A stretch of DNA of 64,000 nt, from NCBI GenBank assembly GCA_036172245.1, contig JAYWIR010000009.1, positions 4,588,001 to 4,652,000 on the forward strand. Reading direction: 5' to 3'. Source of the DNA: Raillietiella orientalis (lineage: Eukaryota). Of the stretch, positions 14,082 to 17,284 are shown piece after piece. The translations under genes were made by a program, and so were the position numbers. The stretch's first letter is position 1. Each line of letters starts with the position of its first letter. The notes below the pieces were generated by a model that saw nothing but the letters and a program-made list of their open reading frames with translations, was not told the origin of the DNA and ran no database searches.

Positions 14082-17000
14082 ATGAACAGTCATAGTAGCT
14101 TCCGCAGCAGATCAGAATTCCATCACGGTCGTGGATCGTCTTCTTCTTTAAATCGTAGTTTGTCGATGAAATCTAAATACAGGTCGTTTTCAAGACTGAA
14201 CGATGTTCCCGGAGAAAAGTGCTATTATAAGTCGACTTCAAGCAGAGACAAGCATTACAGGACCAATTCCCAAGGTAGATGGCCTTCCATGCAGCACAGA
14301 AAGGATTATCCGTCGACGCAAAGCCACCTGCATTTCAACGACATGAAAAGAAGAAAGCTTTCTGATTATAGAAGAGACAGCATCACCCACGGGAGGAGGA
14401 ACCCGAGAGGCCGCCACCACCAAGGGACCTACAACAAGGAGAGCAGTGCTTTCCGCGACGAGGCGAAGCCCCAGGAGGCTCCAGTAGGAGACAGGGCTTA
14501 CGGCTTCCAAGAGAAAAAAGTAGTCTTCGGAGAGAACATGCACATTTCCAAAATGAAATCTTTGGAAGAGTCATTTTACCTGACCAACGGGAGTGACACC
14601 ATCCTTTCAGGTAAGTCCCCCCCTCCCCCCCCAAAAAAGAAATTGTCGCAAATGTTTAGTTTCCTATTCACATTGGCATAGGAGGTTCTCATAAGTGTCG
14701 TCAAGAAAACAGAATGTTTCCTCTCGATCATAAGACATATTTAAAGATAGCGCTGGCACAGCTGAGTGAAACCTTGGGTCCTATTGGAAAGGCTCTGAAA
14801 TATGCGCTGATCCCATTAATCAAGTCAGATGCAAAATGCTACAGAATGCGTGACAGAACAATAAAATCCACTGTTTCAGAAGAGTGCCCCAATAAATCAA
14901 ACAGTTCAAGTGTGGGTTCTAAAAAGGCTCCACCCCTAGAATACGAACTACATCTGACTCTGGAAGAGATATCAAGAGGATGCGAAAAAACTGTAACGAA
15001 CCTTTCATCAATCTTCAAATTGCCTAAGCGCGTTCAGGGAAGAACCATCCGCTGCAACCGTTTTCGCTTTCAAGAGTTGGCATTTGTTTACCAACGCTCC
15101 CTCCCGCTTCCCGGAATTTAATCCAAGCGGCTATCGGTGTTATGAAAGGATTGAAAGAAAGAAAAAAAATGATCATGAGGATTGAAAGGTGTCCCCCTCC
15201 CCCCTTTCCCTATTTCGACCCTGTTCGGCGGAAACCACCCACCCACCCTGTGTGTGTGTGTGTGTGTGTGTGTGTGTGTGTGTGTGTGTGTGTGTGTGTG
15301 TGTGTGTGTGTGTGTGTGTGTGTGTGTGTGTGTGTGTGTGTGTGAGAGAGAGAGAGAGAGAGAGAGAGAGAGAGAGAGAGCACTTGGGACCCCCGTGCAT
15401 CCGGGGCATCTGCGATTCGAAGCTTCACGATGCTGGAGCGGTCGGAAAGCAAATCTTTCCCGGTTCGGGACGTGGCAGAGCGTCGCGCTTTGATCTCAGA
15501 CCACGGATGCAGACCACGCGCTGGATGCGGCGAAATGGAACTGCGCGAAGCGGAGAGATTCCGTTATAACGAGCGACGTAAATTTCCCTTTATCTTTCCT
15601 CCGCCTCCAAAGCTTGGACTTTTTGATTACCCTTTCGTGACTGTTACTGTTTACTGTTTTGCAAGCTGGTAACTCCTCGGAGTGTTTGGTTCCGCGGTGG
15701 CAAAGGGTGTTGTTTCCCGCTCCACCTCTTCGGTGGGAGGCTGCGACTCGTTTATGCAGGCTTCCTCGATACCACAGAATGTTTCTCCGGGTGCCGGAAG
15801 AAAGCATTTGTTTGCATGCAGGAGAATGATTTCGTTTCGCAGGCGGAACTTCTCTTTGAACGCATGCGTACGGCGAAAAGAAAGAGAGAGAGAGAGAGAG
15901 AGAGAGAGAGAGGAAACCCTCAGTCCGCTTGTGGGCAATGGTACGGAGGGAGAGGGGGAGACCAACAAACCGACTGATCCTGTTTATCCAATGAGTTTAT
16001 CGTCTCCATTTGCATCTGTCGGAGCTGAGCTCTTCTCGCTGATTTCTGTTCGCGAACTGCTGCTTTCTAGAGTGAAGTTTTTGCTTTCGTCCGGAGATTT
16101 TCCGGTCTGCCCGCGCAAGATCCCTTCTTTCCAGAATTCTCAAACTGAATAAGAAGCCAAGGTTTCCTCCGAAATGCTCTGCGATTTTCATTTCGCTTTC
16201 GTTCCCTTTTTAAACGAAGCGAAACAAAACAAAGAAAGAAAGAAGGAAAACCGTGCAGGGAGGAAAATTCCCTGTTCGCTGGGAGAGTACTGGGAAATGA
16301 GCGTTGAATGCAGGCAGTGCTTCCCTCTCTTTGTCTCGTGGTCGGTCGGAAATGCGTTTCCCTTGCGGACAGCCTTCAGACGTCCGAATCCTTCCCCAGC
16401 TTCTTCCTCGACGCAATGACCGCCAGACAGAGGATGCGCAACCCCGTGTGAAAATCGCGGCACGTTCACGTCCAAATGGTCCTGAGTCCGAACCGGATGA
16501 CATTTGGCAATTCCGTGGGAGTCGTGGTCCACATTCTTGTAGCACTGCTAGTGATCAGCTCGGGCTTCAAAAACAGCACTAAAGTACTTCCCCCTCCCCC
16601 CTTCCATTACATGCATTCGTGGTTTTCCTGTCTTCGCTCGTTTCTTCGAAAGAACTCGGCCTTCTCAGTGTTTCCCGCGATGTTAAGATGAAAGCACATT
16701 CCCTAGAATTAGACGGCGCGGAAGCATGCCAATTCCAGGCAGCGAATGCTGCTGCAAACATCGTTTAGATTGATCAAAAAGTCAAAAGTGGGCGAACCGC
16801 CTGCCGGAGAATTCACTTCGGACGTGTTTTCCAGATCAACATCACAAGGAATTCACTGGACGAGGAAGGCAGACCGTTCATCGAAGAATGCGATTTCAAA
16901 GTCCCGGTTTGCCAGGGTTGCTGCGGCGAAAATCGCATCGTTTTCCCACGCGAAGGCGATCACTTCCCGGGGACGTCGCCTGGTGACCTCATGTTTGTGA

Positions 17001-17284
17001 TCAAAGAGAAGCCACACCCTTTATTCCTGAAATACGGTTACGATCTTTTCTACACGGCGAAAGTCTCCTTCTACGAGGAATGCCACGGGGTGGAGCTGGA
17101 CGTCCCGACGTTGTCGGGTCCTTCCGTGCACATGAAGTTCACTCCGGAGCAGATAACCAACAAGACAAACAGTGTTCGGCTGAAGGCAGAAGGTCTTCCG
17201 CACCCGAATGATCCCGACGAAAAAGGGGATATAATTATAACATTTGACGTGAAGCGCCCTCAAATTCTAAAAACTTCCAATTAG
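14082..17284 (+). CDS. DNAJB-type (class II Hsp40) C-terminal substrate-binding domain protein with a basic low-complexity N-terminus and no visible J domain; 363 aa, 3 exons (14082-14610, 14880-14992, 16835-17284)
   Basis: Exons 2-3 encode KKAPPLEYELHLTLEEISRGCEKT|INITRNSLDEEGRP...IVFPREGDHFPGTSPGDLMFVIKEKPHPLFLKYGYDLFYTAKVS...VPTLSG...EGLPHPNDPDEKGDIIITFDV, the classic DnaJ_C pattern. Splice sites CAG|GTAAGT (14610), TTTCAG (14879), ACT|GTAACG (14992) and TTCCAG (16834) have compatible phases (1/1, 0/0). Exon 1 assignment is less certain than exons 2-3. Confidence 0.85.
15249..15380. repeat. Compound microsatellite (TG)48(AG)18 in intron 2 of the DNAJB-like gene
   Basis: TG repeat 15249-15344 followed immediately by AG repeat 15345-15380. 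Confidence 0.98.
15883..15912. repeat. (AG)15 microsatellite
   Basis: Directly visible. Confidence 0.95.

Follow-up and report, generated by a model that had tools for sequence, protein, structure and literature searches.

The 64-kb window considered here, 64,000 nucleotides (nt) of contig JAYWIR010000009.1 of Raillietiella orientalis (assembly GCA_036172245.1, positions 4,588,001 to 4,652,000 of the forward strand), is eukaryotic DNA and contains, at positions 14082-17284 of its plus strand, a three-exon gene of animal type with introns of the spliceosomal type. This gene encodes the client-binding module of a class-B Hsp40 and, in the sequence covered, no J domain, which is the defining feature of Hsp40s. 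We give somewhat better than even probability to the explanation that it is a real protein-coding gene, a lineage-restricted J-less paralogue of the DNAJB1/Sis1-type class-B Hsp40s, whose product would bind clients or the tails of Hsp70 but would not activate it. This product of about 363 amino acids (aa) is predicted to consist of a basic, disordered arm of about 195 aa followed by the pair of beta-sandwiches formed by C-terminal domains (CTD) I and II, and to end before the dimerization helix. Because the protein is without a J domain, canonical stimulation of the Hsp70 ATPase would not be possible, and the gene product is probably unable to switch on Hsp70. The requirement of the J domain for the canonical triggering of Hsp70 ATP hydrolysis is restated in passages of PMC8913300 and PMC5818400.

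The coding parts of the three exons join to 1092 nt, that is 363 codons plus the stop codon, with no internal stop. This bears out the coordinates and the reading frame that an earlier annotation of this DNA (hereafter the initial annotation) had assigned to the gene. The gene is read as one 363-codon open reading frame (ORF) that passes through introns bounded by GT and AG. The start ATG of exon 1 has an A at position -3. The gene is composed of the following elements:

14007-14009, plus strand: in-frame TGA, 72 nt 5' of the ATG, which closes the reading frame
14082-14610, plus strand: exon 1, coding for 176 aa; donor CAG/GTAAGT; ends in phase 1
14611-14879, plus strand: intron 1, 269 nt, GT..AG, with an in-frame ATG at 14714
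14880-14992, plus strand: exon 2; acceptor tgtttcag/, donor ACT/GTAACG; ends in phase 0
14993-16834, plus strand: intron 2, 1842 nt, GTAACG..CAG
16835-17284, plus strand: exon 3; acceptor ttttccag/, TAG stop; codes for the remainder of CTD I and the whole of CTD II
17446-17451, plus strand: AATAAA hexamer resembling a polyadenylation signal, 162 nt past the stop and the sole AATAAA or ATTAAA within 17285-18500

By profile and predicted fold, the C-terminal half of the product is an intact class-B Hsp40 peptide-binding module. Exon 3 matches the Pfam family DnaJ_C (PF01556) with 84.5 bits (E 1e-23) and the exon 3 ORF does so with 86.4 bits, the gathering cut-off being 26.6. A class-B profile of 334 nodes, built from 32 J-bearing class-B matches, aligns with the exon 3 ORF over nodes 173-323 (138 bits) and with the exon 2 ORF over nodes 132-179 (21.2 bits, E 2.4e-5), and nodes 132-323 are covered without a gap over exons 2 and 3, with no zinc-finger insertion. 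The initial annotation had likewise read a full DnaJ_C region in these two exons. Exon 2 encodes a short Ser-rich linker and then the first strands of CTD I (PPLEYELHLTLEEISRGCEKT), which align to residues 8-31 of the DNAJB1 structure 3agz_A. The junction between exons 2 and 3 (…GCEKT/INITRN…) aligns to DNAJB1 gaplessly and restores the profile length exactly, and the splice model is therefore confirmed. When compared by sequence with solved structures, exon 3 finds human DNAJB1 at the top (3agx_A; E 2.9e-22, 82 bits), followed by DNAJA2, DNAJB13/RSP16 and Sis1. Structure prediction, a check that the initial annotation had proposed, points to the same fold: the AlphaFold2 (AF2) model of exon 3, made from a 75-row alignment, reaches a predicted local distance difference test (pLDDT) score of 92.6 and is superimposed by Foldseek onto the Hdj1 peptide-binding domain 3agz_A with a TMq of 0.84 and a root-mean-square deviation of 2.2. 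Among 74 aligned homologues, 25 positions are conserved in at least 80%, and 18 of these are kept in exon 3.

The claim of the initial annotation that the gene has neither an HPD motif nor a J domain stands for the window, which extends 14 kb upstream and 47 kb downstream of the gene and is the scope of the searches by HPD tripeptide, by tblastn and by a six-frame J-domain hidden Markov model (HMM). These were all negative, as was Pfam on the exons. Specifically, Pfam finds no match in exons 1 and 2 taken separately at E<=1, and the six HPD tripeptides present in window ORFs of at least 30 aa are not in a J-like context by inspection. The six-frame search, which the initial annotation had also suggested, was run with the J-domain HMM and all filters off on the 2336 ORFs of at least 12 aa of the window; the lowest E was 1.3, for a match on the minus strand. 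Querying the window by tblastn with 150 matches of exon 3, 70 of which are J-bearing, returned nothing credible as a J domain. The absence of a Gly/Phe-rich (G/F) linker, likewise part of that annotation, holds as well: among its 176 residues exon 1 counts 11 Gly and 8 Phe, no match is seen to the G/F section of the class-B profile, and hhalign of exon 1 against the J and G/F part of the 32 J-domain proteins (JDPs) of class B gives a probability of 0.3%. A few weak matches elsewhere in the window were followed up and rejected as chance. The segment 7985-8122 (minus strand) was hit as a J domain by tblastn at E 0.016-0.88 and has an E of 1.3 with the J HMM. The segment 36052-36225 (minus strand) resembled a piece of DnaJ at E 3.3e-4 with one of the 150 queries and at E 5.5 with the profile, and 3260-3346 (plus strand) and 17622-17744 (minus strand) are short matches of the GW[KR]xG type with E values of 0.004 or higher.

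The C-terminal end of the protein differs from that of its relatives. One residue separates the end of the class-B profile match, at node 323 of 334, from the stop codon, and 68 of the 74 aligned homologues extend at least 8 residues beyond the position of the exon 3 stop, the other six ending within one residue of it. A search with a 25-node HMM of the tail gave no convincing candidate for a hidden downstream exon encoding the terminal helix (best plus-strand E 3.2). From this comparison the C-terminal dimerization helix is missing, in agreement with the shortened helix described in the initial annotation. This annotation had also pointed to an altered KPGWK turn, read as CQGCC, and the alignment of the 74 homologues shows the change: the hairpin consensus VKPGWK.GTKITF is replaced by VPVCQGCCGENRIVF, so that GWKxGT becomes GCCGEN. 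Lost in this replacement are a Gly conserved in 71 of the 74 homologues and a Thr conserved in 68, together with the Trp of the majority consensus. In place of the GWK hairpin there is a Cys cluster, C-x6-C-x2-C-C, formed by exon 3 residues 26-30 (16910-16924, plus strand) and the Cys at residue 19. The cluster holds one CxxCxG motif, which resembles a repeat of the class A zinc finger. As a separate observation, the motif EEC occurs three times in the CTD region.

The site at which class-B proteins bind the C-terminal EEVD peptide of Hsp70 appears to be preserved in part. The contacts of DNAJB1 with this peptide are K181, K182, I235 and F237, as given in the relevant part of PMC8913300. By alignment, K, T, L and F occupy the equivalent positions, which leaves one Lys and the hydrophobic cage in place, and one of the four published contacts is lost. 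This suggests a partly kept EEVD site, and binding of the Hsp70 tail, if any, would probably be weaker than in DNAJB1.

The region found where a J domain and G/F linker would be expected comprises about 195 aa. Exon 1 looks translated from its open frame and codon periodicity. Its frame is open in 0 of 20,000 composition-matched shuffles, the other five frames contain 3-10 stops, and the GC content at third codon positions is raised in exon 1 (0.57) as it is in exon 3 (0.61). Codon periodicity is significant in a base-by-position test (p 0.005 for GC, 0.002 for the four bases) and is seen at p<0.05 in none of 10 flanking pieces of 528 nt, although an open frame alone yields some periodicity and the result is supportive rather than decisive. 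The product of exon 1 is rich in Ser (30 of its 176 residues), Arg (20), Lys (14) and His (11), with an isoelectric point of 10.17 and a grand average of hydropathy of -1.40. It has no relatives detectable by Pfam or by a word-indexed protein search (length class 'longer'), and in a language-model atlas it obtains a low recognition score of 1034, with a best match of 0.76. The arm is predicted to be intrinsically disordered: its AF2 model, a single-sequence run and hence a weak test, has a pLDDT of 49.9 and is nearly devoid of secondary structure, the helices being limited to five residues at 161-165 and one three-residue turn. A J-like helical fold, as expected of a degenerate J domain without HPD, is seen neither in this model, weak as a single-sequence test is, nor in the profile comparison. 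Exon 1 contains seven RS/SR dipeptides and is, given this number, not an RS domain. The KRRK tetrapeptide that the initial annotation had likened to a nuclear localization signal is present at residues 89-92. As a nuclear signal it is weak evidence, since exon 1 holds 34 Lys and Arg in 176 residues and, by rough arithmetic, a match to K(K/R)x(K/R) is about what chance would give in so basic a sequence. The idea of nuclear or RNA targeting rests on this single tetrapeptide and on the basic, Ser/Arg-rich composition.

In the mechanism that we propose for a J-less gene product, the CTD pair would bind unfolded clients and/or, via CTD I, the EEVD tail of Hsp70. The protein would probably be monomeric, as the helix that makes the dimer in class-B proteins is lost, and could function as a holdase or an adaptor, or compete for EEVD. 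The arm, basic and disordered, might serve for localization or targeting or provide a second binding function. With the dimerization helix missing, it is less likely that the protein acts as a dominant negative through heterodimers. A more elaborate version seems to us rather improbable. In it, the Cys cluster at the GWKxGT position would act as a metal or redox switch and the basic Ser/Arg/His arm would bind nucleic acids or condensates, making the protein a stand-alone monomeric EEVD decoy or a targeted holdase, independent of Hsp70 activation.

With exon 3 as query, a HMMER search of 1.84 billion cluster representatives returned 5257 matches with E<=0.001; the thresholds of <=1e-10 and <=1e-30 are reached by 521 and 5 matches. 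According to the J HMM, 70 of the best 150 matches carry a J domain and 80 do not, and 24 of these 80 are at least 270 aa long and start with Met. Some of the J-less database predictions may be gene-prediction fragments; as predictions, judged by these sequences, J-less DnaJ_C proteins are not rare. Several of the 24 longer ones (P0004, P0005, P0012, P0013, P0021, P0087 and P0108) contain two or three tandem DnaJ_C modules and, by HMM, no J domain, and may constitute an uncharacterized J-less Hsp40-derived family of their own. Like the gene described here, they have neither a J domain nor the GWK tryptophan, and most of their modules stop short of the terminal helix, at about nodes 311-321 (in P0021, one module extends to node 328). 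They differ from it in having two or three modules, are only 27-33% identical to it and are known as predictions.

The closest characterized relative in both sequence and fold is DNAJB1/Hdj1, of the type that includes DNAJB4/5 and yeast Sis1, which shares with the product of this gene the CTD I and CTD II without a zinc-finger insertion. The equivalents of K181 and F237 are kept and the change of I235 to Leu is conservative. In contrast to DNAJB1, the gene described here has no J domain, G/F linker or dimerization helix, carries GCCGEN for GWKxGT and Thr for K182, and begins with a basic orphan N-terminus. DNAJB13/RSP16 offers an example of class-B CTDs employed as a structural or binding module of a dedicated complex, and is found among the second-tier matches (60 bits; 8j07_V, TMq 0.84). 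However, its solved entries are full-length proteins of 316-346 aa and its sequence score is below that of DNAJB1, and both DNAJB13 and RSP16 retain the J domain.

Phrase searches of a library of open-access papers turned up precedents among isoforms and zinc-finger proteins only, and no paper that describes a gene for CTD I/II alone without a J domain. The genes of DNAJB12 and DNAJB14, which encode JDPs, produce short isoforms without the J domain that show negligible Hsp70 binding, and DNAJB12-short lowers polyglutamine aggregation without binding Hsp70, as described in portions of PMC8792056 and PMC10939069. These isoforms are splice forms of J-bearing genes and have a C-terminal DUF instead of DnaJ_C. 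The gene described here, by contrast, seems to have a J-less architecture only. The chloroplast proteins ZnJ2 and BSD2 are, in the relevant part of PMC5818400, a case of a DnaJ sub-domain that stands alone without a J domain, and ZnJ2 has holding-chaperone activity and no synergy with DnaK. In this case, however, the sub-domain is the CxxCxGxG zinc finger instead of CTD I/II, and both the kingdom and the compartment are others. J-like proteins, as introduced in a section of PMC10939069, have a degenerate J fold without HPD, an example being an adaptor of the mitochondrial import motor.

The interpretation as a functional J-less paralogue has to be weighed against a number of observations that speak against it. 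Of the 25 strongly conserved CTD positions, seven carry another residue, among them the G and T of the GWKxGT hairpin, and the residue equivalent to K182, which binds the carboxylate, is Thr. Top identity of exon 3 among the cluster representatives is just about 42-44%, and there is therefore no orthologue in this library and the module is either old or fast-evolving. Word-indexed searches for orthologues were also empty (exon 3 at 'longer' and 'near', exon 1 at 'longer'), and in a scan of metagenome contigs none of 58 pattern matches was confirmed. Orthologues with the same architecture, which the initial annotation had proposed to look for, were found in none of these searches. Moreover, the donor of exon 2, GTAACG, is sub-optimal, and five ATGs of short upstream ORFs (uORFs) are present within 230 nt 5' of the start. 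The reservation made above about codon periodicity belongs here too, as does the fact that the disorder of exon 1 was called from a single-sequence AF2 run, a type of prediction that is frequently poor in any case.

The rival that survives best, although we consider it unlikely, is that the locus is a decaying or non-functional partial duplicate. A copy of the CTD exons of a class-B gene, made without its J/GF exon, would have come to lie behind an open frame that is there by chance, and this copy would be silent, or transcribed without function, and intact only through its youth. The joint loss of the J domain, G/F linker and dimerization helix fits such an origin, as do the seven replaced positions, the lack of relatives and low language-model recognition of exon 1, and the uORF ATGs. 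The same is true of the upstream region, in which no heat-shock element with one mismatch or fewer is found between 9060 and 15004 (in the whole window there are 33, versus 31.4 by chance). Because there is no such element in the 5 kb upstream, classical heat-shock regulation is not indicated. Nevertheless, an identity of about 40% to every known DnaJ_C means that the copy is not young, and yet the frame is open over 363 codons, the hydrophobic core and the four splice sites have survived, and the fold is predicted at a pLDDT of 92.6. The frame of exon 1 is, in addition, open far above chance and shows codon periodicity.

Less probable again is a mis-modelled 5' end, for which we see very little room. 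The J exon would then lie outside the window, or a splice acceptor inside exon 1 (e.g., after ...cttccgcag, at about 14107) would join it to upstream sequence, and the protein would be an ordinary though divergent JDP with a Ser/Arg-rich linker. There are AG dinucleotides preceded by some pyrimidines ahead of codons 8-10 of exon 1, and the N-terminus, with its roughly 195 aa, has about the length of the J and G/F part of the 32 class-B proteins (some 160-170 nodes). However, the searches described above found no J-like sequence in any frame over 14 kb upstream and 47 kb downstream, the other introns of the gene measure 269 and 1842 nt, and the A-rich tract ahead of the ATG makes a poor polypyrimidine tract. 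Further to the left, a RhoGDI gene (Pfam Rho_GDI, 42.9 bits; human RhoGDI1, E 4.7e-11) has its first coding exon in the window, at 134-331 of the minus strand. This gene points away from the DnaJ_C gene and its remainder must extend past the left end of the window, which makes exons of the DnaJ_C gene beyond that end less likely. The 13.7 kb that separate the RhoGDI exon from the DnaJ_C gene contain no J-like sequence.

Equally improbable is that exon 1 is mostly untranslated or alternative and that translation starts at an internal ATG, such as the one at 14714 in intron 1, to give a bare CTD I-CTD II protein of about 242 aa that would still be J-less; the exon 2 ORF (14660-15121) contains in-frame ATGs and its open stretch starts at 14660, but transcription would need to start inside intron 1, the frame of exon 1 is open and periodic, and its donor matches the consensus perfectly, in the phase required by exon 2.

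If the interpretation as a functional J-less paralogue is correct, the gene represents a natural experiment on the abilities of CTD I/II in the absence of Hsp70 activation. These could include the holding of clients, competition for the tail of Hsp70 with co-chaperones of class B and of the CHIP type, or use as a binding module elsewhere. It would also bear on the evolution of chaperone families, that is, on how domains are shed and swapped. The weight of the case is limited by its being an orphan gene and by the frequency of J-less DnaJ_C predictions among its nearest relatives (80 of the best 150).

Within intron 2, an uninterrupted (TG)48 microsatellite occupies 15249-15344 and directly adjoins a (GA)n tract at about 15345-15390; a second (GA)n tract is present at about 15880-15912. 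Homopolymer-like runs of G or C of at least 10 bases are present at 12600-12640, 13600-13610, 13805-13830 and 14617-14632. They lie on either side of the putative promoter and at the beginning of intron 1, and could be prone to G-quadruplex formation or to assembly errors. The Pfam scan covered the ORFs of the window, those of 55-109 aa being included up to about 21 kb, and Rfam found no family anywhere in it. The minus-strand segment 42462-42911 weakly resembles zf-RVT, by which reverse transcriptases bind zinc (E 3.4e-4; 21.7 bits versus a cut-off of 27.5), and may be the remnant of a retroelement. The block 44000-57000 has long ORFs of up to 640 aa, in which Pfam finds no significant family and one sub-threshold match to DUF4786. 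This block is GC-rich, with 60-72% GC in 2-kb bins (the GC content of the window ranging from 35% to 72%) and no depletion of CpG, and contains purine-rich tracts of the GGGAGG type and, at 53168-53332, a pyrimidine-rich tandem repeat of 78 nt. Over the window as a whole CpG is not depleted either, which speaks against vertebrate DNA, its observed/expected ratio being 0.76-1.11 in 15 of the 16 blocks of 4 kb and 0.49 in the remaining one.

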